Source: a virus | Strand: one strand, 5' to 3' | DNA length: 27,879 nucleotides | UHGV virus genome: UHGV-2100961 | Part shown: piece after piece, positions 9,139 to 27,879 of the stretch | How positions within the stretch are numbered: position 1 is the stretch's first letter | Layout: every line of letters begins with the position of its first letter | Notes under the pieces: model-generated | Databases searched by the model: none | What the model saw: the letters and a program-made list of their open reading frames with translations, nothing else | What the model was told of the DNA's origin: nothing | Program-made: the position numbers and the translations under genes

Positions 9139-9389
9139 TGAAAGAATACCGCTATTCCGGCCCGGCCAGCGGCGTCACGCTGTCGGACGGAACCGAAATC
9201 CTGCTCTGGCCGGGGAAGACGGTTTCCCTGCCGGAGGAGCATGACTACGTGAAGGTACTGGTGGCGCTGAAGCATCTGACGCCGGTACCAGAAGATACTA
9301 AACCCGCCGTCACACCGGCTGTGCAGTCACCAAAGCGCAGAAGCAGCAGTGACAGCGAAGTGAAAACGGAGGACGCCCATGGCAGCTAA
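9135..9389 (+). CDS. Mu gp38-like small protein
   Basis: 84-aa ORF overlapping both neighbours (GTGATG, ATGG); immediately precedes the sheath gene. Confidence 0.6.
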   Translation: MMKEYRYSGPASGVTLSDGTEILLWPGKTVSLPEEHDYVKVLVALKHLTPVPEDTKPAVTPAVQSPKRRSSSDSEVKTEDAHGS

Positions 9390-16249: not shown

Positions 16250-17391
16250 ACAGTACTGCGCAAGCCACATCAGCGTTAACCGGCGTCAGCGATGTGCTGA
16301 CGCCGGTATTCACTCTGTGGTATCTGCAGAAAAACATCACCTCTGATATCGCGCCTTATGTCACCCGTGTGGTCTGGAGCGATAACATCAAAAATGAGTC
16401 CGATACCATTGAGGTGGAGCTGGACGACACCGATGGCCGCTGGCTGGATAAGTGGTATCCGGGCAAGGGTGACACGCTGACGCTGAAAATGGGTTATCAG
16501 GGCGAGAAACTGCTGTCCTGCGGTACATTCTCAATAGACGAGATCGAAGTGAGTTCGCCCGCGTCCGTTGTCGCTATCCGTGGGGTGGCCACCTCGGTTA
16601 ACAGTGCTCTGCGGACTAAATCCAGCCGTGGTTTTGAGAACACCACGCTGGCAGCTGTTGCGGGGCGGATTGCCAGAAAGCACCGGCTGAAACTGGTGGG
16701 CAGCATTGAGTCCATCAGAATCGACCGGGTGACCCAGTATGCTGAAACCGACGTGGGTTTTCTGCGCCGGCTGGCCAGCGAGTATGGTTATGCAGTGAAA
16801 GTGGTCAGTGACCAGCTGATTTTTTCTCATCTGGCCACACTGCGCAGTCAGGAGCCGGTCAGGCAGTTAAAACCGCAGGATGTGGCCCGCTTTTCCCTGC
16901 GTGACACCATCAACCGGGTCTATAAATCTGCAAAGGTAAAACACCAGAAAAGCAGCAGTAAAAAACTGATCGTCTACGAAGCTGATGGTGGTACCCGTGA
17001 AAGCGACAAAAAGCTCAAAGGTGGTAAGGTTACCAGCGCTGACTCACTTAAAGTTAACAGCCGCGTCAGCGACCCGGACAGTGCCCGGATTAAAGCGGAT
17101 TCAGCACTGGCCAGACATAACGAATACCAGCAGAACGGCTCCCTGACGCTGACGGGAACACCTCAACTGACAGCAGGCAACAAAATTGAACTGGTGGGTT
17201 TTGGGCAGTTATCCGGGCCATGGCTCATAACCACTGCCCGCCATGCGTTTGACCGTAACAGCGGCTACACCACAGAGCTGGAAGTGGCACGGGGGCCAGT
17301 CACAAGAGGGAAAAAACAAAAAACTCAGAAACTCACGGTTTATCACCCGGATGGCAGTACATCGACGGTGATTAAGGAGAAGAAAAAATGA
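16237..17391 (+). CDS. Tail/baseplate hub protein (Mu P-like, P2 gpD-like)
   Basis: 384-aa ORF with Lys-rich C-terminus; precedes the baseplate spike gene. Confidence 0.75.
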   Translation: MAEINSTAQATSALTGVSDVLTPVFTLWYLQKNITSDIAPYVTRVVWSDNIKNESDTIEVELDDTDGRWLDKWYPGKGDTLTLKMGYQGEKLLSCGTFSIDEIEVSSPASVVAIRGVATSVNSALRTKSSRGFENTTLAAVAGRIARKHRLKLVGSIESIRIDRVTQYAETDVGFLRRLASEYGYAVKVVSDQLIFSHLATLRSQEPVRQLKPQDVARFSLRDTINRVYKSAKVKHQKSSSKKLIVYEADGGTRESDKKLKGGKVTSADSLKVNSRVSDPDSARIKADSALARHNEYQQNGSLTLTGTPQLTAGNKIELVGFGQLSGPWLITTARHAFDRNSGYTTELEVARGPVTRGKKQKTQKLTVYHPDGSTSTVIKEKKK

Positions 17392-17984
17392 CTGGTGTCA
17401 CTCGTCAGGTCGGTACGGTCAGTGCCGTTGATGCCGACAGGGTTCAGGCCCGCGTTCGTCTGCCTGAATGCGATAACCTGCGCACAAACTGGCTTAACGT
17501 GCTGCAGCGCAATACCCAGGATAACAAAGATTACTGGCTCCCTGACGTGGGGGAGCAGGTTGAGGTGCTGCTCGATGCCAACGGCGAGGATGGTGTTATT
17601 CTGGGCGCGGTGTATTCAGACGTCGATAAACCACCGTTCAGTGACAAAAATATCCGGGGAACCCGGTTTGCTGATGGTGCAGAGTACAGCTACAACCGGA
17701 AGACGCACACTCTGATCATCCGGGGCGGCATTGAGCATATTGTCATTGAGTGTGGTGCTGATGTGGTATTGAAAACACAGAAAGCCACGATTGACGCACC
17801 GGAAACCGAACTTACCGGAGATCTGCGTGTCAGGGGTAAGCTGATTTACGAAGGAGGCATGGCGGGTTCTGGTGGTGAAGGTGTTACCGCGACCATCCAT
17901 GGCAATATCGAGATTAAAGGGAATGCCCATGCCACGGGCAGTATGTTGTCTGATGGCGAAAACTCCAGCCACCACTCCCACTGA
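17388..17984 (+). CDS. Baseplate spike / assembly protein V-like
   Basis: 198-aa ORF with RBS GGAGAAG; Gly-rich C-terminal region ending in an His-rich tail (SSHHSH). Confidence 0.75.
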   Translation: MTGVTRQVGTVSAVDADRVQARVRLPECDNLRTNWLNVLQRNTQDNKDYWLPDVGEQVEVLLDANGEDGVILGAVYSDVDKPPFSDKNIRGTRFADGAEYSYNRKTHTLIIRGGIEHIVIECGADVVLKTQKATIDAPETELTGDLRVRGKLIYEGGMAGSGGEGVTATIHGNIEIKGNAHATGSMLSDGENSSHHSH

Positions 17985-18038
17985 GCTTTTTAAACGCCTT
18001 TAATATCAGCGTTCCCGCACGGGGGCAATACTGCCCCC

Positions 18039-18386
18039 ATGAAAACAACCTCAGTATTCTGGCAACCAGCCCTGCAGGCTCCCGGCGAAATTGTCCGGGG
18101 GCTGGATGATATCCGGCAGGCGATTCAAATTATCCTGCGGACTCCCCGCGGCAGCGACCCGCATCGCCCGGAGTTCGGCAGCAATCTGCATCTTTATATC
18201 GACTGGCCTGTAGACCGGGCCATTCCGCATGTGGTGCGCGAATCCGTCGATGCCATCCGGCGCTGGGAGCCCCGCTGCCAGCTTATGTCAGTTAAACCCG
18301 CCGTCGACGGCGAACATCTTACGCTCCGGGTGAGCTGGAAAGGCTCAGACGGACAGACCCGGACTCAGGAGCTGCTATGGCGCTGA
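18039..18386 (+). CDS. Baseplate wedge protein (gpW / gp25-like)
   Basis: 115-aa ORF between the V-like and J-like genes; typical size and position. Confidence 0.7.
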   Translation: MKTTSVFWQPALQAPGEIVRGLDDIRQAIQIILRTPRGSDPHRPEFGSNLHLYIDWPVDRAIPHVVRESVDAIRRWEPRCQLMSVKPAVDGEHLTLRVSWKGSDGQTRTQELLWR

Positions 18387-19480
18387 CAGAACCCGATTTT
18401 ATTGAACGCGATGCCGACAAAATCACGGCAGAAATGATTGCGAAGTATGAAGCGGATACCGGCAAAACGCTGTACCCGGCACAGGCAGAACGTCTGCTGA
18501 TTGATCTGTGGGCCTATCGCGAAATGCTGGTCAGGGTTGCGGTACAGGAGGCAGCAAAGCAGAATCTGGTCGCCTTTGCCCGTGAGCCGATGATTGATTA
18601 CCTCGGTGAACTGGTTGGTGTATACCGTCTTGCCGCGCAGCCTGCCACCACCACGCTCCAGTTCTCCGTAGATGAGGCACTGGCCATTGATGTGCTGATC
18701 CCGGCAGGCACCCGCGTCAGCGCTTCCGACAGCGTTATTTTTGCCACCGATACAGATGTGGTACTGAAGGCCGGATTGCTGCTGGTCAATGTCACGTCCA
18801 CCTGTACCGAACCCGGTACCGCTGGTAACGGCTGGCAACCTGCGCAGGTCAGTCAGTTACTCGATGAGATTGATAACGTCGACCTGCTGGTGAGCAATCT
18901 GACGGCCAGTTCCGGCGGTTCAGAACAGGAAGACGATGACAGGCTCCGGGAGCGTATCAGGCTGGCCCCGGAGTCATTCACCAATGCCGGAAGCCGTGGC
19001 GCATACCGCTTTCATGCCATGCAGGCCCATCCCAACATTGTCGATGTTGCTGTGCTTTCCCCGGTTCCCGGGACCGTAGATCTGTATCCGCTGCTCAGTA
19101 CCGGTCTGCCGGACGGCGGTGTTCTCACGCTGGTAGAGAGTTTCTGCTCTGATGAGAAAGTCAGGCCACTCACTGATACAGTGCGGGCTAAAACACCAGT
19201 GAAGGTGGATTACACCATTGAAGCCAGGATTACGATCTATCGTGATCAGGATGCCAGGTCTGTAAAAGATGCCGCTAACAGCGCCATACAGAACTGGGTG
19301 GCATCACGTGCCGCCACGCTGGGGCGCGATATTGTCCCCAGCCAGATTATCAGTGCATTGTCCGTTTCCGGGGTGTACCAGGTTGAACTGGTGACACCGG
19401 CACTGCGGGTGGTGGCAGAAAACGAATGGGCAAACTGTACGGCAATCACTCTTAACATGACTGGAGTGTCTGATGACTGA
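18377..19480 (+). CDS. Baseplate J-like protein
   Basis: 367-aa ORF overlapping the W-like stop; followed by the gp48-like gene and then the tail fibre. Confidence 0.75.
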   Translation: MALTEPDFIERDADKITAEMIAKYEADTGKTLYPAQAERLLIDLWAYREMLVRVAVQEAAKQNLVAFAREPMIDYLGELVGVYRLAAQPATTTLQFSVDEALAIDVLIPAGTRVSASDSVIFATDTDVVLKAGLLLVNVTSTCTEPGTAGNGWQPAQVSQLLDEIDNVDLLVSNLTASSGGSEQEDDDRLRERIRLAPESFTNAGSRGAYRFHAMQAHPNIVDVAVLSPVPGTVDLYPLLSTGLPDGGVLTLVESFCSDEKVRPLTDTVRAKTPVKVDYTIEARITIYRDQDARSVKDAANSAIQNWVASRAATLGRDIVPSQIISALSVSGVYQVELVTPALRVVAENEWANCTAITLNMTGVSDD

Positions 19481-20051
19481 GCCATTACAACTCCCGCCAC
19501 CGCTTGAGGGTGATATCAGTCTCAGGACGCTGGGAAGACTGGCAGGACGGCTGGATAACATCGACCTGAGCGTACTGATGGTCTTTCTCGTCGATATCGT
19601 CGACAGTTCCGCGCTGCCATGGCTGGGCGAGCAGTTCTCACTGTCTGGCGATGGCTGGGAGCTGGCGGAATCGGACGATGTTCGCCGCATGCTTATAAAA
19701 GCAGCCATCGAACTGCACCGGTATAAAGGGACGCCGTGGTCAATCCGGGAAGTTATCCGCCGTTTTGGCTTTGGTGAAGTGGATCTGATTGAAGGCACAG
19801 GTCGTCTCAGTTACGACGGCAATCGCAGCTATAACGGACTGTTTGTTCATGGAGATGCAGCCGCCTGGGCAGTTTATCGCGTTATTCTGAAACAGCCCAT
19901 TACTAACGATCAGGCCGCGATGCTGCGTCAGACGCTGGCTGCATTTGCACCGGCCCGCTGCCATCTGGCCAGCCTGGAGTATCAGTCTGTGGCCATTCGC
20001 TATAACAATACTGCCATCCATGATGGCAGTTATAACCACGGGAGCAGTTGA
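19473..20051 (+). CDS. Baseplate/tail protein (Mu gp48-like, P2 gpI-like)
   Basis: 192-aa ORF overlapping the J-like 3' end; immediately upstream of the tail fibre. Confidence 0.7.
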   Translation: MTEPLQLPPPLEGDISLRTLGRLAGRLDNIDLSVLMVFLVDIVDSSALPWLGEQFSLSGDGWELAESDDVRRMLIKAAIELHRYKGTPWSIREVIRRFGFGEVDLIEGTGRLSYDGNRSYNGLFVHGDAAAWAVYRVILKQPITNDQAAMLRQTLAAFAPARCHLASLEYQSVAIRYNNTAIHDGSYNHGSS

Positions 20052-20053
20052 TT

Positions 20054-21349
20054 ATGGGAAACCTGAATGAAACAGAAAAGTGGGAAGAAAATATCTATCA
20101 ACTGGAGACATCAGATCCGGTTCTGGGTGGTGCAGACGGGATATCAAATCGAGCCCCCCGGCAACTGGCAAACAGGACGAAATGGCTGAAGAAAAAAACG
20201 GAGGAAGCCGCACAGTCACTGGCTGAACACGTACGTTCCCGTAACCACCCGGACGCGACACTGACAGCTAAGGGGTTCACCCAACTGAGCAGTGCCACCA
20301 ACAGCACCTCTGAAACGCTGGCCGCCACACCAAAAGCCGTCAAGGCTGCATACGACCTTGCAGCCGGCAAGGCGCCCGTCAGCCACACTCACCCGTGGAG
20401 TCAGATAACGGGAGTGCCTGCGGCTTCACTGACGGCAAAAGGCACCGTACAACTGAGCAGCGCCACGGACAGTCAATCAGAAACTGAGGCTGCCACGCCG
20501 AAGGCGGTCAAGGCTGCATACGACCTTGCAGCCGGCAAGGCGCCCGTCAGCCACACTCACCCGTGGAGTCAGATAACGGGAGTGCCTGCTGCCTCGCTGA
20601 CGGCAAAAGGCACCGTACAATTGAGCAGTGCCATCAACAGCACGTCTGAAATACTGGCCGCCACACCGAAAGCGGTCAAGGCTGCATACGATCTGGCAAA
20701 CGGAAAACAACCGGCAGATGCCACGCTCACTGCTCTGGCAGGACTTGCCACTGCAGCAGATCGGTTGCCTTATTTTACCGGAGCAGACCGCGCAGCGCTG
20801 GCAACCCTTACAGCTATTGGTCGCGCTATTATCGCTAAGGGCAGTATAAAAGATGTCCTCAATTACCTTGGTTTGGGGGAAGGCTCTGCATTGCCTGTTG
20901 GTGTACCGGTTCCATGGCCCACCGCCACACCGCCAGCAGGCTGGTTACAGTGCAACGGAGCTACGTTCACCAAAGAACAATATCCTGTTCTGGCCAGAGT
21001 CTACCCGACCCTCCGTCTTCCCGATTTGCGCGGTGAGTTTATCCGTGGATGGGATGACGGACGAAAGATTGACACCGGGCGTGCCCTGCTAAGCAGCCAG
21101 AGCGGAATGATTGAGAAACACCGTCATATTGTTGTTGCCAATGATGGTTACGACACAAAAGATGAATGGGAACTGGCTGCGATTTTCAAAAAAACATACA
21201 CACAAGGACGAGGACTTGATGCCACAAATACAGGAGGGAGTCTGACCCCATCACCAACACTTCATTCGCGAGGGAGTATCGGTAATACTGGCGGGAGGGA
21301 AACCCGTCCACGAAATATTGCCTTTAACTACATTGTCAGGGCGGCCTAA
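20054..21349 (+). CDS. Tail fibre protein (constant N-terminus, repeat shaft, C-terminal tip cassette 1)
   Basis: ATG 20054 (RBS GGGAG); three 56-aa shaft repeats; C-terminal region has the LPDLRGEFIRGWDDGRK motif and ends ..RPRNIAFNYIVRAA. Confidence 0.85.
   Translation: MGNLNETEKWEENIYQLETSDPVLGGADGISNRAPRQLANRTKWLKKKTEEAAQSLAEHVRSRNHPDATLTAKGFTQLSSATNSTSETLAATPKAVKAAYDLAAGKAPVSHTHPWSQITGVPAASLTAKGTVQLSSATDSQSETEAATPKAVKAAYDLAAGKAPVSHTHPWSQITGVPAASLTAKGTVQLSSAINSTSEILAATPKAVKAAYDLANGKQPADATLTALAGLATAADRLPYFTGADRAALATLTAIGRAIIAKGSIKDVLNYLGLGEGSALPVGVPVPWPTATPPAGWLQCNGATFTKEQYPVLARVYPTLRLPDLRGEFIRGWDDGRKIDTGRALLSSQSGMIEKHRHIVVANDGYDTKDEWELAAIFKKTYTQGRGLDATNTGGSLTPSPTLHSRGSIGNTGGRETRPRNIAFNYIVRAA
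20261..20700 (+). repeat. 168-bp (56-aa) in-frame tandem repeats in the tail-fibre shaft, about 2.6 copies
   Basis: Anchor CAAGGCTGCATACGA at 20341, 20509 and 20677 (period 168); encoded units LTAKG.. QLSSA.. AATPKAVKAAYDLAAGKAPVSHTHPWSQITGVPAAS. Confidence 0.85.
20868..20947 (+). repeat. Direct repeat copy A (80 bp, identical to 21353..21432) at the constant/variable junction of the fibre gene
   Basis: TTGGTTTGGGGGAAGGCTCTGCATTGCC..CAGGCTGGTTA read identically at both positions; about 90% similarity continues for another ~120 bp. Confidence 0.85.
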
Positions 21350-21352
21350 ACG

Positions 21353-21432
21353 TTGGTTTGGGGGAAGGCTCTGCATTGCCTGTTGGTGTACCGGTTCCAT
21401 GGCCCACCGCCACACCGCCAGCAGGCTGGTTA
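21353..21432 (+). repeat. Direct repeat copy B (80 bp, identical to 20868..20947) at the 5' end of silent tip cassette 2
   Basis: Same 80-mer begins 4 nt after the fibre stop codon. Confidence 0.85.
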
Positions 21433-21870
21433 AAGTGCGACGGGCGCGCCTTTACAAAAGAACAATATCCTGTTCTGGCCAGAGCCTACCCGACCCTCCG
21501 TCTTCCTGATTTACGCGGTGAGTTTATCCGTGGATGGGACGACGGGCGCAAAGTTGATACAGGACGTAAGTTGCTGTCCGCACAAGGGGCAACGCTGTTA
21601 AGAACAGCAATGCTGGATTATTATAACCAGGACACTACGGGAACCTCGGGGATAGTCGGCATGGGATTCAACAATGAAGATTCCATTACAGACCTTCGTG
21701 AGGGCAGCTTTAAAATGCCGGACGGGACAACATTCAGCGATCCTGTCATAGTAATGTCAGACAATGGTATGCAGGCTACTATTCTGACCTCTATCAGAAG
21801 CGGGTATGCGAAGGGTATCACTGTCAGACCCCGTAGCATTGCACTTAATTACATTGTGAGGGCAGTTTAA
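21353..21870 (+). other. Silent alternative tail-fibre C-terminal tip cassette 2 (no ATG or RBS of its own)
   Basis: Open frame encoding GEGSALPVGVPVPWPTATPPAGWLKCDGRAF..LPDLRGEFIRGWDDGRKVDTGR..RPRSIALNYIVRAV, paralogous to residues ~275-432 of the fibre; only a TTG codon at 21358, no SD. Confidence 0.7.
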
Positions 21871-22484
21871 TGAGTAACACTGCAGTTCTGGATGAAAACG
21901 GTATCGCCACTGTAGCGGGCGATATCACTGTATATCACTATGACGAGGAAACCCGGGAATACACCTCATCCTCTGTGGAGTATCTCGCCCTTGGGGTGGG
22001 TACTCCGGCACATTCGTGCGCCGATGCACCGCCGGAGGCAATTTCGGGTTACGTGGTTTGTCGGACTGCCACGCTGAACGGGTGGGAGCATGTGCCTGAT
22101 CACCGCGGCGAGACGGTATACAGCACGGAGAACGGTAACCCCGTTCTGATTACCCAACCGGGTGATTACCCGGCGGACACCACCACAAAACAGCCAGCCA
22201 CGCCATGGGATACCTGGAACGGTGAGGCGTGGGTAACCGATACTGAACGGCAGCGAGCCGCAGAACTGGAGGTTGCCAGACAGCAACGCCAGCAACGGGT
22301 GAAACAGGCGATGGCGTCCGTCGATCTTATCAACCTCAAACTGCGTGCTGGTCGCAGTCTGAAACCAGAAGAAACGGCAAAACTGAACGCCGTGCTGGAT
22401 TATATCGACGAGCTGAACGCACTGGATATCAGCAAGGCACCTGAAATCAGCTGGCCGGAAGCGCCACTGGCACTTGCCAGTTGA
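21870..22484 (+). CDS. Tail fibre assembly protein (Tfa/U-like chaperone)
   Basis: 204-aa ORF; ATG overlaps the cassette-2 stop (TAATG); N-terminal MSNTAVLDENGIATVAGDITVYHYDEETREY and Gln/Arg-rich helical C-terminus typical of Tfa proteins. Confidence 0.75.
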   Translation: MSNTAVLDENGIATVAGDITVYHYDEETREYTSSSVEYLALGVGTPAHSCADAPPEAISGYVVCRTATLNGWEHVPDHRGETVYSTENGNPVLITQPGDYPADTTTKQPATPWDTWNGEAWVTDTERQRAAELEVARQQRQQRVKQAMASVDLINLKLRAGRSLKPEETAKLNAVLDYIDELNALDISKAPEISWPEAPLALAS

Positions 22485-22490
22485 ACGGTA

Positions 22491-22826
22491 TCACGCCGCC
22501 CTCACGATATAGTTAAACGCGATATTGCGGGGGCGGGTTATGTTAAAGAATGCTCCGTTTAATTCGGCTTTTGCGCGACTGTTTGTTTCACCCAGCATTG
22601 CGTACCACAAATAATCGCTACGGTAATTCCCCGCAAACACCTTATCGCCGCCATAGTCAATATTATTTCCGTTACTCATGTACGAGATATCAAGCGCAGA
22701 ATCGTTATCGTCATGACCGCCGACCAGTGTACCTTTCTGCCATGAAAGCAACTTACGCCCCTCGTCAATCTTGCGCCCGTCATCCCATCCACGGATAAAC
22801 TCACCGCGCAAATCGGGAAGACGGAG
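22491..22826 (-). pseudogene. Inverted tail-fibre tip cassette 3, 5'-truncated by the IS21-family element
   Basis: Minus-strand frame encodes ..LRLPDLRGEFIRGWDDGRKIDEGRKLL..RPRNIAFNYIVRAA*; the 50 nt at 22777..22826 are the exact reverse complement of 21011..21060; homology stops at 22826/22827. Confidence 0.7.
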
Positions 22827-22891
22827 TATTAGACGTCAACTAGTTTTGCCGACTCGCGCCAACTATACTGGCCGCACCCTTCAGTGCGACA

Positions 22892-23647
22892 TCAAGTCGC
22901 GCTTGTTACTGCCTTCGCTGTCTTTTTCCTGTAGCTTTCACCTTTCAGTTCGAACATATATCCGTGATGGATCAGCCGGTCTGCCGCCGCCACCGCCATA
23001 GTCTCATCCACGAAGATGCTGCCCCACATGCTGAACGGATGGTTACTGGTTATCACCAGGCTCCCACGTTCATAGCGATGCGCTATTAACTCGAACAGTA
23101 CTCCCGTTTCGGCGCTGTCGCGTTTGACATAGCCAAGATCATCCACCACTATCACCCGGTAGCGATCCAGTTTCAGTAGCAGCTCATTCAGTTTCAACTG
23201 CGCTCTGGCTTTACGTAGTTCCTGCAACAACTCTCCTGCGCTGTAGAACCGGGCCCGGTAGCCCTGGCCTACTACGCCATCCACGATCGCTGCCGCCAGA
23301 TGGCTTTTCCCCAACCCGCTGGCTCCGAACAGCAGAACGTTTTCTCCTGCATCAACCCAGTCTGTCGTTTCACAGAGTTGCCGGAACTGAGCTCCATTCA
23401 GTTCCGGCACCTGACTGAAGTCGTATTCGCTTAGCGTTTTGGCAACTGGCAACCGGGCCTCCTTTTTATAACGACGCAGTTTTTCACTCTCGCGCCACAG
23501 GAGTTCTTCATTGCATAGCGTCAGAAGATAGCGCGATGGTGTCCAGCCTTCTGCCAGTGCTCGTTTTTCCAGAGCGTGCCATTCAGCTCCAACTCGTGTC
23601 AGGCGTAGTTTACGCAGGCTGCGTTCAAGGTGATGGATATTGCTCAC
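22892..23647 (-). CDS. istB: IS21-family ATP-binding helper protein IstB
   Basis: 251-aa ORF with Walker A (GASGLGKSH) and Walker B (VIVVDDLG) motifs and the C-terminal ..LKGESYRKK.. segment typical of IstB. Confidence 0.85.
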   Translation of the reverse strand: MSNIHHLERSLRKLRLTRVGAEWHALEKRALAEGWTPSRYLLTLCNEELLWRESEKLRRYKKEARLPVAKTLSEYDFSQVPELNGAQFRQLCETTDWVDAGENVLLFGASGLGKSHLAAAIVDGVVGQGYRARFYSAGELLQELRKARAQLKLNELLLKLDRYRVIVVDDLGYVKRDSAETGVLFELIAHRYERGSLVITSNHPFSMWGSIFVDETMAVAAADRLIHHGYMFELKGESYRKKTAKAVTSAT

Positions 23648-25143
23648 TGCGAACCGCCCTTGCCACGCAGTAGTTGCTCATAACTGCTCAGGTTATGCTG
23701 TTTCACATTGACTACCGGCAACGCCTTTTCCTTTATACCCAGGAAGCGCATCAGCCGGTGCAGATCCACGTTTCCCGGGGTATTCAGCATCTGCTCCATA
23801 CCTTTTGCCACGACTGAGATATCGTCGTATCCTGCAGCCAGTTTCAGAGCATGTACCATCAGCCTGCCTGCCATGTCGGGTTCCAGATGATTACATAAGC
23901 GACGCCACAGCCTCCGCCATTCATCGTCTGGCAGGATGTCATTTCTCAGCGTTGCATGGCAGAACGCACCGGGCTTTTTTGCCAGACTGTCGATCACATG
24001 TCGGAAGTCGATACGACGGGCCCGCGTCTTCCCTTTTTCTGGTCTGACACGTGGGCAGCTCATGACCTCGCTGCTGCCAACGTAACAGCTCAGACGATCG
24101 TCCCATAACCGGACCCGTAACAGTTGACCTACAAGCCGGGAAGGTACGCTGTAGACGACGTGCTTCACATTGATGGTACTGCTGCGGCTAACCCTCACAG
24201 TCAGCTCATCATAGTCAGCACTGCGACGAAGCGGCAGCGGTTTCAGATGAAGACGTTCTTCCTTGACCAGATCCTGATTGTTACGGTTGTGCCGCATAAC
24301 CTGCTGAGTGATGAAGGCCTGATATTCTTCTATGGTGCTGAAGTCGTTACTGCCCCGCAGTATCAGCGCCTGACAGATACGCCTTTTCAGATGTCCGTGG
24401 GCACTTTCAACCGAGCCATTTTCGTGGCCCCGACCGGCATTATTGTGTACGCCCTGCATTCCGTAGTGCTGACAGAGAGCAGCATAACGCTCAGTCAGCT
24501 CGCGGCGTCCATCTTCGCCCTGTTGTTTCCATGCTGCCCTCAGGCTGTCCGTTTTATGTTCTACCGGCACTCCGCCCAGTTGTCCGAGGGCTTCCTGCAG
24601 ACCTTCAGCCAGAGCAGAGAAGCTCTCACCACCCAGCACAACCCGCATCCAGCTCCAGTGGCTCCATTCCAGACGGAAGTGATACAACTTATGCGCCAAC
24701 AACTTACCGGCGATGGTGACAACTACACCTTTCAGTTCAGTAAAGTCCGACAGACCTCGCAGACCGGGCTGATGTCGCTGGCGGAACATGACCTCCTGCT
24801 CTGCACCATACTGTAGCTTCCATTCGCGGACCCGCCGTTGCATTGTTCTTCGAAGGCTGTTGGGGTACTGGCCGGGATATTTATCCTGTAGCATCTCCAG
24901 CAGAGTTGTTGGTGTCAGAGCCGGCCTCTCTTTCAACAGAGGAACAAGCATGCTGTCCCACACAGCTTCCAGAGGATCTTTGCGTGTGCGCCAGTGCCGA
25001 ACACTGTTTTTTGCCCACTCTCCTTTTTCGATCCGACGACCAGAACGGACTGAGATACCAGCCTTCATGGCCGAGATATGCTGAGTTATACCTTTCTTAC
25101 GCTGAGTCATATAGTAACTGACCTGAGAAGTATTGAGCGTCAC
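23644..25143 (-). CDS. istA: IS21-family transposase IstA
   Basis: 499-aa ORF immediately upstream of, and overlapping by 4 nt, an IstB-like ATPase gene; operon architecture diagnostic of IS21-family elements. Confidence 0.8.
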   Translation of the reverse strand: MTLNTSQVSYYMTQRKKGITQHISAMKAGISVRSGRRIEKGEWAKNSVRHWRTRKDPLEAVWDSMLVPLLKERPALTPTTLLEMLQDKYPGQYPNSLRRTMQRRVREWKLQYGAEQEVMFRQRHQPGLRGLSDFTELKGVVVTIAGKLLAHKLYHFRLEWSHWSWMRVVLGGESFSALAEGLQEALGQLGGVPVEHKTDSLRAAWKQQGEDGRRELTERYAALCQHYGMQGVHNNAGRGHENGSVESAHGHLKRRICQALILRGSNDFSTIEEYQAFITQQVMRHNRNNQDLVKEERLHLKPLPLRRSADYDELTVRVSRSSTINVKHVVYSVPSRLVGQLLRVRLWDDRLSCYVGSSEVMSCPRVRPEKGKTRARRIDFRHVIDSLAKKPGAFCHATLRNDILPDDEWRRLWRRLCNHLEPDMAGRLMVHALKLAAGYDDISVVAKGMEQMLNTPGNVDLHRLMRFLGIKEKALPVVNVKQHNLSSYEQLLRGKGGSQ

Positions 25144-25200
25144 GCCATTTCCTGTTGGATCATGTAAATGACACTCAGGTTACAAAACCGGCCAGAATAA

Positions 25201-26226
25201 TCGGCGCCAGGCGGACTGAGTTATTGTCGTCTCATAGTAACCGATCCCGCAGAAGCGTCCCGGCTGATTCGTCGGGGACATCTGACTTATACTCAGGCCC
25301 GTAATATCACCCGGTTCGGGACCATCGAATCGGTCACTTATGATATTGCCGAGGGTTCGGTTGTCAGTCTGGCGGCCGGAGGGATCAGTTTTGCCCTGAC
25401 GGCATCGGTCTTCTGGCTCAGCACCGGCGATCGCGATGCTGCCCTGCAGACAGCTGCTGTCCAGGCAGGAAAAACCTTCCCCCGCACACTGGCTGTCTAC
25501 GTCACAACCCAGCAACTCCACCGGCTCAGTGTTGTTCAGGGTATGCTGAAGCACATTGATTTTTCGACTGCCAGCCCGACTGTCCGACTGGCTCTTCAGA
25601 AGGGGACCGGTGCAGGAAATATCAGTGCCCTGAACAAAGTAATGAAGGGTACGCTGGTGACATCTCTGGCACTGGTAGCTGTCACAACCGGCCCTGACAT
25701 GATCAAAATGTTGCGGGGACGGATCTCCGGTGCGCAGTTCATCAGGAATCTTGCCGTGGCATCTTCCGGTGTGGCAGGTGGAGCTGTCGGGTCAGTGGCG
25801 GGCGGGATACTGTTCAGTCCACTGGGACCATTTGGTGCACTGACAGGGCGTGTGGTTGGCGGTGTTCTGGGGGGAATGATTGCCTCCGCTGTATCAGGAA
25901 AAATTGCCGGAGCGCTGGTTGAAGAAGATCGCGTCAAAATTCTGGCAATGATTCAGGAGCAGGTGACATGGCTTGCCGGCAGTTTCCTGCTGACCGGACA
26001 TGAGATTGAAAATCTGAACGAGAATCTGGCCCGTGTTATCGATCAGAATGCTCTGGAGATCATTTTCGCCGCCGGTATACAACAACGGGCCGCGACCAAT
26101 ATGTTAATCAAACCACTGGTGGTCAGTATCATCAGGCAACGCCCCGTCATGGAATATGATGCATCCCATCTCGGCAATATGGTTAACCGGCTGGAAGAAG
26201 CATTACCCCCGGAGTTACCGGCATAA
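25201..26226 (+). CDS. Glycine-zipper membrane protein ORF, probably 5'-truncated at the IS junction (alternatively a 227-aa protein from ATG 25543)
   Basis: Frame is open for 114 codons upstream of the first ATG back to the IS edge with no in-frame ATG/GTG/TTG; contains GVAGGAVGSVAGGILFSPLGPFGALTGRVVGGVLGGMIASAVSG (GxxxG repeats); no family assigned. Confidence 0.45.
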   Translation, partial: SAPGGLSYCRLIVTDPAEASRLIRRGHLTYTQARNITRFGTIESVTYDIAEGSVVSLAAGGISFALTASVFWLSTGDRDAALQTAAVQAGKTFPRTLAVYVTTQQLHRLSVVQGMLKHIDFSTASPTVRLALQKGTGAGNISALNKVMKGTLVTSLALVAVTTGPDMIKMLRGRISGAQFIRNLAVASSGVAGGAVGSVAGGILFSPLGPFGALTGRVVGGVLGGMIASAVSGKIAGALVEEDRVKILAMIQEQVTWLAGSFLLTGHEIENLNENLARVIDQNALEIIFAAGIQQRAATNMLIKPLVVSIIRQRPVMEYDASHLGNMVNRLEEALPPELPA

Positions 26227-26820: not shown

Positions 26821-26839
26821 CAGGAGAAAACAGATATGC

Positions 26840-27879
26840 GTAAGCGTGCAGCAAGAACCGTATTGACGGGGATGTGTTATTCAGTCGGCAGTGCTACGCG
26901 CCAGGGGAGCAGTTCGCCGACCCGGTTTATCGGCCAGTCGGCTATGACGTCAAGGACATAGCGGAGGTAGCTTTCTGGCTCCACTCCGTTCAGTTTGCAC
27001 GTCCCGATCAGGCTGTACAGCAGCGCTCCCCGCTCTCCTCCATGATCCGAACCGAAGAACAGGTAGTTTTTGCGGCCCAGACTGACCATCCGCAACGCAT
27101 TTTCAGCGATGTTATTGTCCGCCTCAGCCCAGCCATCATCTGCATAGTACGTCAGCGCCGGCCACTGGTTCAGGGCGTATGCGAACGCTTTCGCCAGTTC
27201 TGAGTGTCGCGACAGGGTTTTCATCTTTTCACGCAGCCAGCTTTCCAGGGATTTCAGCAGCGGTTTCGTTTTCAACTGACGTTCGGCAAGGCGCTGCTCC
27301 GCCGTCATTCCCCTTATCTCTGCCTCGATGGCGTACAGTTCGCCGATCCGTTTCAGCGCTTCCTCCGTCAGGGCTGACGGGGTGCGAACGTGCACATCGT
27401 GGATTTTACGGCGGGCATGAGCCCAACAGGCGGCTTCCGTTATCCGGTCATCCCGGTACAGCTCGTTGAACCCGGCGTATGCATCCGCCTGCAGTACACC
27501 ACTGAACCCCGCAAGATGGGTCTGCGGATGGATGCCTTTTCTGTCCGGGCTGTAAGCGAACCACACCGCCGGCGCCAGCGTTGACCCGGCGTTACGGTCG
27601 TCACGAACGTAGGTCCATAACCGCCCGGTCTTCGTTTTCTTATTGCCTGGCAACAGCACCGGGACAGGCGTGTCATCAGCATGGAGCTTACCGTCAGTCA
27701 GCACATAGTCCTGAAGCGCCTCTTCCAGCGGAGACAGCAGCCGGCAGCATGCATCCACCCAGCCCGACAGCAGTGAACGGCTCAGCTCCACACCTTGCCG
27801 ACCGTATATTTCTGACTGGCGATACAGCGGGGTGTGCTCTGCATACTTCGAGGTCAGCACGCGGGCCAGCAGCCCCGGT
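26840..27879 (-). mobile_element. IS66-family element, terminal ~1 kb (continues beyond the window)
   Basis: Terminus begins GTAAGCGTGCAGCAAG at about 26840, 37 nt from the end of a TnpC-like transposase ORF that runs off the window edge. Confidence 0.7.
26877..27879 (-). CDS. IS66-family transposase (TnpC-like), C-terminal portion; N-terminus outside the window
   Basis: Minus-strand ORF of at least 327 aa ending ..[22 protein letters not shown]..; recognised as the IS66-type transposase C-terminal region; frame still open at the window edge. Confidence 0.75.

Follow-up and report, generated by a model that had tools for sequence, protein, structure and literature searches.

The stretch of viral DNA analysed in this study (UHGV virus genome UHGV-2100961, 27,879 nucleotides, hereafter the window) raises the question of how a tail-fibre gene followed by alternative tips, with perfect repeats in both direct and inverted orientation, could switch host range when no invertase gene accompanies it. 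Very probably, the locus serves a Mu-like E. coli prophage for switching tail-fibre tips, and with them host range, by means of a serine invertase of the Gin/Pin family, and is locked in this copy by the insertion sequence ISEc10. The switch is of an already known kind; the same locus has been published for prophage Phi2 of EC958.

The fibre gene and its tip cassettes

The fibre gene and the open frames behind it are arranged as follows.

20048..21349, + strand: expressed tail-fibre gene, 433 aa (open reading frame; three Pfam Phage_fiber_2 domains and a Tail Collar domain)
20048-20869, + strand: fibre constant part, joined in frame to the tip 1 cassette
20259..20762, + strand: three tandem 168-nt coding repeats (Phage_fiber_2) within the constant part (repeat analysis and Pfam)
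20870..21349, + strand: tip 1 cassette, 159 aa and stop, currently expressed (translation)
21355..21870, + strand: tip 2 cassette, 171 aa and stop, silent (open frame without ATG; Tail Collar domain)
21870..22484, + strand: tail-fibre assembly chaperone, sole copy in the locus (Pfam Caudo_TAP, E = 5.6e-27)
22491..22826, - strand: tip 3 cassette, 3' fragment of 111 aa and stop, its head and crossover site C absent (open reading frame, translation)

This layout agrees with the anatomy proposed in the earlier note, namely a constant fibre part, three alternative tips with the third inverted, and one chaperone. The tip 2 frame, open over 21358-21870, contains no ATG, and for want of its own start codon the cassette is silent in the window. 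Such silent cassettes are annotated in RefSeq as partial or as pseudogenes. The fibre gene is 98-99% identical to its counterparts in the Mu-like prophages of CE10, Ecol_448 and MS 21-1, the last being a complete genome otherwise near-identical to the window. The repeat section is longer in relatives: the Ecol_448 fibre as a whole has 533 aa, and the fibre genes of other genomes measure 1800-1965 bp. Full-length tip 3 is a cassette of 474 bp in Ecol_448 (locus L004, 7210-7683), and the tip 1 cassette of MS 21-1 lies inverted, adjoining the invertase gene (locus L006, 8791-9267).

All three cassettes start with GLGEGSALPVG... when translated from their right half-site, and each reads on to a stop codon. 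They have in common a head of 72 aa (90-97% identity) and the end motif RPRNIAFNYIVRAA, whereas their central parts show only 29-44% identity among the three, in keeping with the shared ends and different centres described earlier. Presumably the tips confer different receptor specificities.

Both of the repeats that had been noticed proved to be exact. The direct repeat (20868-20947 and 21353-21432) is identical at 80 of 80 positions, is not extendable by a single base on either side, and goes on at 90% identity over 218 nt (20865-21082 against 21350-21567); an exact 80-nt repeat within 28 kb cannot arise by chance. The inverted repeat pairs 21011-21060 with 22777-22826, which are reverse complements at 50 of 50 positions; the arm reaches 72 nt at 93%, and the repeat stops at 22826 only because ISEc10 begins at 22827. 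The perfect 80-mer is peculiar to the window sequence: the tip 1 cassette of MS 21-1 differs at 7 of 477 aligned positions, within the 80-mer stretch, and in Ecol_448 the same two heads have only a 5-nt exact prefix in common.

It could be supposed that old duplications merely left tips 2 and 3 behind as decayed paralogues that take no part in switching, as the missing start codon of tip 2, the truncation of tip 3 in the window and the RefSeq labels might suggest. Little credence indeed can be given to this supposition: the cassettes are open in frame from crossover site to stop codon, they are 98-100% conserved across genomes, and the frame disruptions named in the earlier note as a mark of decay were found in none of the three tip translations. 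It is refuted by the finding that each of the three cassettes is joined to the constant part, as a full-length fibre fusion, in some complete genome.

Crossover sites and arrangements in related genomes

Two sites of the kind used by serine invertases were recognized by pattern scan in the window.

20856..20881, + strand: crossover site A, TCCTCAATTACC-TT-GGTTTGGGGGAA, 26 bp, at the constant/variable boundary (central TT at 20868-20869)
21341..21366, + strand: crossover site B, GCGGCCTAAACG-TT-GGTTTGGGGGAA, 26 bp, overlapping the tip 1 stop codon

Sites A and B have one orientation, and the identity of the 80-mer starts exactly at the central TT of site A. The left half of site A is the Phi2_5prime sequence of EC958 and the right half is Phi2_3prime, and both sites match the published Phi2 sites as well as the consensus quoted with them (Forde 2014 Table 3, PMC4134206). 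The gix site of Mu, for comparison, is TTATCCAAAACC-TC-GGTTTACAGGAA, and the right half-site GGTTT is common to gix and the locus. No inverted pair of crossover sites in cis was found by the site scan of the window, which returned only A and B. Three crossover sites are present in intact relatives, and the window keeps two of them. The inverted site C was found in loci L003, L004, L010-L015 and EC958, while the orientation of site B is + in L004, L013 and L015 and - in L006. Across genomes the left half-sites remain with the upstream DNA and the right half-sites move with the cassettes.

Beyond site C, beside tip 3, the intact relatives encode a serine invertase of 190 aa (WP_000904922.1; Pfam Resolvase and HTH_7), which is 76% identical to Mu Gin and matches the Gin structures 4m6f and 3uj3 (E = 2e-93). 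When the window was searched by tblastn with the relatives' invertase and Mu Gin, no invertase was found (best E = 0.67), as had been noted earlier, and its expected position is taken up by ISEc10. The likeness to Mu G, P1 C and Min remarked upon before holds down to canonical 26-bp sites and a Gin-like invertase in relatives.

An intact locus would carry sites A and B in one orientation, site C inverted and the invertase gene just past C. Each cassette would begin with the right half of a 26-bp site followed by the conserved 72-aa Tail Collar head, and the constant part would end in the left half-site. The invertase would act on inverted pairs only, that is on A/C, on B/C, or on A/B after B has been flipped, and successive inversions would give four arrangements, two of them expressing tip 1, one tip 3, and one tip 2 followed by the chaperone. 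A tip in direct orientation would be a normal intermediate and not an anomaly, because successive three-site inversions yield it.

Four arrangements are possible with three sites, and all four were found in complete E. coli genomes.

L004, L015: fibre-tip1, tip2, chaperone, inverted tip3
L013: fibre-tip1, forward cassette, inverted chaperone and tip2
L010: fibre-tip3, inverted chaperone and tip2, further cassette
L006, EC958: fibre-tip2, chaperone, inverted tip3 and tip1 (in EC958 two other cassettes replace tips 1 and 3)

Tip 2 is joined to the fibre constant part in CE10, phage 503046, MS 21-1 and EC958. Alternative junctions, which the earlier note had asked after, exist in related genomes, and composite junction queries (fibre-tip3 and invertase-tip2) matched dozens of complete genomes over their full length, in a single piece, at 98-99.6% identity. 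The clearest pair is L013 and L015, which are identical over 4290 nt to the left and 669 nt to the right, while the 1601 nt between the B and C cores are exact reverse complements with zero mismatches. Their breakpoints are placeable only within about 60 nt of identical sequence, the crossover site included, so that homologous recombination could formally also have produced this inversion.

It was also observed that the chaperone lies directly 3' of tip 2 in every case, and that both invert as one unit in the relatives compared. With tip 3 expressed, the chaperone runs opposite to the fibre gene, and in two of the four states it is directed away from the fibre, unlike in Mu, P1 and e14. This single chaperone sits awkwardly with the explanation preferred here.

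Switching had been attributed in the earlier note to RecA-dependent homologous recombination between the repeats, deletion fusing the fibre to tip 2 and inversion swapping tips 1 and 3. The repeats are certainly long enough (80 nt exact; 218 nt at 90%), two-cassette loci with a fibre-tip 2 fusion occur in CE10 and phage 503046, and the tip 1 head of the window has an 80-mer of the tip 2/tip 3 type, which a crossover or gene conversion within the heads could give. Such a mechanism is nevertheless very improbable as the driver of switching, since there is a canonical invertase site at every boundary, the half-sites, left and right, reassort exactly at the site across genomes, and high-frequency inversion of this very locus is seen in cultures of EC958 (PMC4134206). 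Moreover, the inverted partner in the window is a truncated cassette, so inversion would yield a fragment-tipped fibre and would be irreversible. RecA-only switching as the main mechanism is rejected on account of the canonical sites and of the invertase gene that every intact relative has next to the locus, and it is also unneeded, the direct tip 2 fitting a three-site, Min-like scheme. The predicted deletion is borne out to the extent that fibre joined directly to tip 2 without tip 1 is found in CE10 and phage 503046, but these loci may either have lost tip 1 or never have had it. In these particular strains the inversions are presumably made by the invertase and not by homologous recombination.

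ISEc10 and the state of the window copy

The fragment of tip 3 is followed directly by an insertion sequence.

22827..25236, - strand: ISEc10, IS21 family, inserted in tip 3 (RefSeq annotation of identical copies; istB 22892-23647, istA 23644-25143)

Homology to the window ends at 22826 in all relatives. The target duplications of this ISEc10 differ, the left flank ending in ACGGAG and the right flank starting with GTAACC, whereas in MS 21-1 every IS copy has a matching duplication on its two sides. Judging from these sequences, the two flanks in the window derive from different IS copies, and with target duplications so mismatched site C and the invertase gene would therefore be separated from the locus. 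MS 21-1 has the same ISEc10 insertion in tip 3, but there the head of tip 3 follows on the far side, along with tip 1 and the invertase gene. Past 25236 the window contains instead the IrmA island flank of another ISEc10 copy, and the window's two IS flanks are 2.7 Mb apart in MS 21-1. The simpler picture of a single IS insertion, past which the locus would continue, is ruled out by this IrmA flank and by the unmatched target duplications.

According to the proposed course of events, ISEc10 would have landed in the tip 3 head, and the DNA downstream would now be the surroundings of another IS copy, that of the IrmA island. Of the three sites the window would keep only A and B, in direct orientation, having lost C together with the head of tip 3 and the invertase. 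Gin/Hin-type invertases are not known to recombine directly oriented sites, and by analogy A and B would not be recombined. In the window copy the switch thus appears to be locked on the expression of tip 1, while tip 2 stays silent and tip 3 is destroyed. The alternative to RecA offered earlier, a switch that froze when its recombinase was lost, is the one upheld: relatives have the invertase beside tip 3, and ISEc10 would have removed it along with the tip 3 head and the third site. For the remainder of the source genome, GAGAGATAAACGTTGGTTTGGGGGAA and WP_000904922.1 are the search targets.

Part of the window's layout may itself stem from faulty assembly; the places in doubt are the join at the IS, the shortness of the fibre repeats and the perfection of the 80-mer. 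On this reading the assembler would have left the shared heads, the ISEc10 copies and the 168-nt repeats by the wrong path, and the true genome would resemble MS 21-1, with fibre-tip2, chaperone, inverted tip 3 with ISEc10, inverted tip 1 and the invertase. Over 16583-20250 and 21350-25236 the identity of the window to MS 21-1 is 100% or 99.9%. All differences fall where repeats bound the sequence (the fibre repeat section is shorter, the head of tip 1 is of the majority type, the isomer state is different and the IS flanks are distant), and the tip 3/ISEc10 junction occurs in only 1 of 5426 complete genomes. Against this, the fibre-tip1-tip2 order is real in the independent complete genomes Ecol_448 and 2014EL-1343-2, the window is without any N, inversion isomers and IS-by-IS recombination are ordinary biology, and the exact structure of the window is reachable by one invertase step and one shared-head crossover. 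An artefact is accordingly possible but rather unlikely, and it touches the question of whether this copy is truly locked, not the identity of the system.

Wider significance and relation to known systems

If the preferred explanation of an invertase switch locked by ISEc10 is correct, a three-cassette locus that seemingly has no invertase is an ordinary published switch disabled by an insertion sequence. The labels partial and pseudogene are routinely given to silent tip cassettes, and assemblies across these repeats call for care. Two minor questions concern the lone chaperone and the occurrence of shared sites in Mu-like, P2-like and P1-like elements.

With regard to the latter, it is tentatively suggested that the crossover sites might be portable junctions, letting one invertase move tips between unrelated phages in one cell. 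The P1-like phage-plasmid L014 has four sites with the same site sequences, and its invertase gene is 100% identical at the DNA level to that of the Mu-like prophages. In many ST131 genomes the place of site C in this prophage is taken by an A-type site, which adjoins a P2-like prophage's fibre gene in inverted orientation, as invertase inversion between two prophages would yield. The switch is also asymmetric, with one chaperone for three tips, and inversion would therefore alter chaperone expression along with tip identity.

The closest known system is Phi2 of EC958, in which a 2067-bp segment was seen either way round among PacBio reads (Forde et al. 2014, PLoS One, PMC4134206). Phi2 is of the same prophage family; its invertase is the identical protein WP_000904922.1, and it has in common the 26-bp sites, Phage_fibre_2 repeats followed by Tail Collar cassettes, tip 2 and the chaperone. 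It differs in that two other cassettes stand where the window has tips 1 and 3, and the window for its part would have lost site C and the invertase to ISEc10. Only two outer sites and the one 2067-bp inversion were reported for Phi2 (Forde 2014, PMC4134206), whereas the site scan of the present analysis found three crossover sites there; such loci thus hold more sites than the two reported.

The G/Gin system of Mu, C/Cin of P1 and P/Pin of e14 likewise have a site inside the fibre gene at the constant/variable boundary and an invertase gene at the segment end. They have two sites and two mirror-image sets with a chaperone per tip (Mu annotation), whereas the locus described here has three sites, tips of about 160 aa of the Tail Collar type and a single chaperone tied to tip 2. 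No chaperone of its own was found behind each tip, as in the S-U and S'-U' pairs of Mu; the one Caudo_TAP gene of the locus is always behind tip 2. The R64 shufflon (Rci) is similar in that multiple inversions shuffle C-terminal cassettes of a surface adhesin, but it uses a tyrosine recombinase and other sites (sfx-type). A shufflon-type system was ruled out for this locus, with which a recombinase of the serine type is associated.

The Min system of plasmid p15B also has more than two sites, a serine invertase of the Cin/Pin type and overlapping invertible segments that shuffle fibre tips. Min reportedly has six sites and many more isomers, whereas the present locus has three sites and four isomers, and its carrier is a Mu-like prophage, not a P1-like plasmid.

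Fibre tips, repeats and crossover sites

Self-comparison of the window confirmed both repeats described in the earlier note: the direct 80-mer is identical at 80/80 positions (20868-20947 vs 21353-21432) with no further extension possible, the wider similarity being 90% over 218 nt, and 22777-22826 is the exact reverse complement of 21011-21060. The gene layout proposed there (fibre, start-less tip 2, chaperone, convergent tip 3) also agrees with the ORF coordinates.

Features of the tip locus
20048-21349, plus strand: fibre gene (ORF; Pfam Phage_fiber_2 three times and Tail Collar)
20856-20881: site A, TCCTCAATTACC-TT-GGTTTGGGGGAA
21341-21366: site B, GCGGCCTAAACG-TT-GGTTTGGGGGAA, overlapping the tip 1 stop codon
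21358-21870, plus strand: open frame of tip 2, without start codon (ORF; Pfam Tail Collar)
21870-22484, plus strand: chaperone (ORF; Pfam Caudo_TAP)
22491-22826, minus strand: tip 3, convergent (ORF)

All three tips share a 72-aa head (90-97% identity between translated cassettes) and the end motif RPRNIAFNYIVRAA, while their middles are just 29-44% identical; translation of the three cassettes revealed no frame disruptions. Three tandem 168-nt coding repeats were also noted within the fibre gene (20259-20762), the later copies being 84% and 63% identical to the first. This section is longer in relatives, with fibres of 533 aa or 1800-1965 bp compared with 433 aa in the window, where it may have been collapsed in assembly.

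The first bases of the 80-mer are the central TT of a 26-bp site. Sites A and B are the same crossover sites as in the published prophage Phi2 of E. coli EC958 (Phi2_5prime TCCTCAATTACCTTGGTTTAGGAGAA and Phi2_3prime GAGAGATAAACGTTGGTTTGGGGGAA), a strain whose PacBio reads showed both orientations of a 2067-bp segment (PMC4134206). The gix site of Mu, for comparison, is TTATCCAAAACC-TC-GGTTTACAGGAA. Across genomes, the right half-sites move with the cassettes and the left half-sites remain with the upstream DNA.

The invertase and inversion isomers

Homology to the window ends at 22826 in every phage and E. coli relative. In the intact relatives (CE10, Ecol_448, phage 503046, 2014EL-1343-2 and EC958), tip 3 extends about 140 nt further, up to an inverted site C, and within about 70 nt after that site begins a 190-aa recombinase (WP_000904922.1) with Resolvase and HTH_7 domains (Pfam), which matches structures of Mu Gin (E = 2e-93) and shares 76% identity with Gin. 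As the earlier note had claimed, the 27,879-nt window holds no invertase homologue detectable by tblastn with the relatives' invertase and Mu Gin; its absence is explained by ISEc10, an IS21-family element occupying 22827-25236.

With A and B in plus and C in minus orientation, four arrangements can be generated by an invertase restricted to inverted pairs, a scheme that also explains the tip in direct orientation. All four were found in complete genomes.

Arrangements of the three-site locus
Fibre-tip 1, tip 2, chaperone, inverted tip 3, invertase (same order as the window): Ecol_448, 2014EL-1343-2
Fibre-tip 1, forward cassette, inverted chaperone and tip 2, invertase: ECAMP047
Fibre-tip 3, inverted chaperone, tip 2 and further cassette, invertase: AVS0973
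Fibre-tip 2, chaperone, inverted tip 3, inverted tip 1, invertase: MS 21-1, EC958

The cleanest inversion case is ECAMP047 against 2014EL-1343-2, which are identical over 4290 nt on the left and 669 nt on the right, the 1601 nt between the site B and C cores being exact reverse complements with 0 mismatches. Two-cassette loci express tip 2 (CE10, phage 503046) or tip 3 (strains 510016 and Iso00225), and dozens of complete genomes match composite queries for the fibre-tip 3 and invertase-tip 2 junctions at full length, in one piece, at 98-99.6%.

One chaperone gene serves two or three tips (window 21870-22484; loci L010, L011 and L012, which express tip 3). In loci whose fibre carries tip 3, as in L010-L012, the chaperone runs in the opposite direction, converging on the fibre gene, and from this layout production of tip 3 seems to take place with no chaperone on the same transcript. 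The MS 21-1 record has lost single bases within site C (L006, about 9270-9295; GTGGTTGGGGG vs GTTGGTTTGGGGG) and has one additional G where the IS joins (6226); the cause is either miscalled homopolymers in sequencing or genuine damage to site C.

State of the window's copy

Invertases of the Gin/Hin type do not recombine direct sites; their action depends on Fis and an enhancer as well as on sites lying inverted in cis. Since A and B, a direct pair, are the sole sites left in the window, its copy is predicted to be locked, with tip 1 expressed, tip 2 silent, the chaperone co-transcribed and tip 3 broken. This agrees with the second option of the earlier note, a switch frozen after loss of its recombinase. 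The RecA-dependent switching also suggested there is not needed for the architecture, which is explained without it. Such events may still occur, rarely, and a two-cassette form without tip 1 exists.

The complete MS 21-1 genome has the same ISEc10 insertion within tip 3 (L006), flanked on both sides by ACGGAG and followed by the tip 3 head, site B, inverted tip 1 and the invertase. A second copy 2.7 Mb off (L007), flanked on both sides by GTAACC, adjoins the IrmA island; the two copies lie in inverted orientation. In the window the target duplications are unmatched (ACGGAG on the left, GTAACC and the IrmA island on the right), so that it passes from the neighbourhood of one IS copy into that of the other. 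Either IS-by-IS recombination really took place, in which case the unmatched duplications imply a large IS-mediated inversion, or the assembly is mis-joined and chimeric. Homology to the MS 21-1 island stops at 26839; the unlike sequence (26840-27879) bears an IS66-family transposase ORF (26877-27860, minus strand) where MS 21-1 carries a DUF905 gene.

Window and MS 21-1 are 100% identical over 16583-18500, differ by one mismatch over 18500-20250 and are 99.93-100% identical over 21350-25236. Besides the hybrid IS join, the window has a shorter constant fibre part (817 vs 1279 nt), a different cassette isomer and a tip 1 cassette differing at 7 of 477 aligned positions, all in the head. This head stretch is of the tip 2/tip 3 type, hence the perfect 80-mer. 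Every one of these differences is located at repeats. Genuine recombination could account for them, since a single invertase step and a crossover in the shared head give the structure; choices made by the assembler could do so equally. The identity of the system is independent of this question; the claim of a locked copy depends on it.

Related elements and known systems

At the prophage right ends compared (L003, L004, L006, L009-L013 and L015), the same prophage occupies different positions in the chromosome, next to flgA, potG, aroA, irp2, yehR, clbH or a lambdoid gpJ, and several adjoining host genes are truncated, as expected of a transposable, Mu-like phage. In E. coli ST131 strain 4/0 (L005, 7446-9158), site C and the invertase are replaced by an A-type site in inverted orientation (TCCTCAATTACC as left half), which is joined to a full-length P2-like prophage fibre gene facing the Mu-like one; this match pattern recurs in about 35 other genomes, several labelled ST131. 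The arrangement resembles the product of an inversion that joined two prophages at their crossover sites; if true, tips would be swapped between phages.

The description in the earlier note was accurate, and the system is one already known: the EC958 Phi2 system, a member of the Gin/Pin/Cin type whose third site is Min-like. A four-site, four-cassette version is present on a P1-like phage-plasmid that has darA and holin genes (plasmid pCUVET20-PYO4.3, L014, 4035-9472); its sites have the same sequences, its tip 2 body is 100% identical, and its invertase gene matches the one in the Mu-like prophages at 100% DNA identity. Compared with Mu, P1 and e14, the present locus differs by its short Tail Collar tips, its third site and a single chaperone tied to tip 2.
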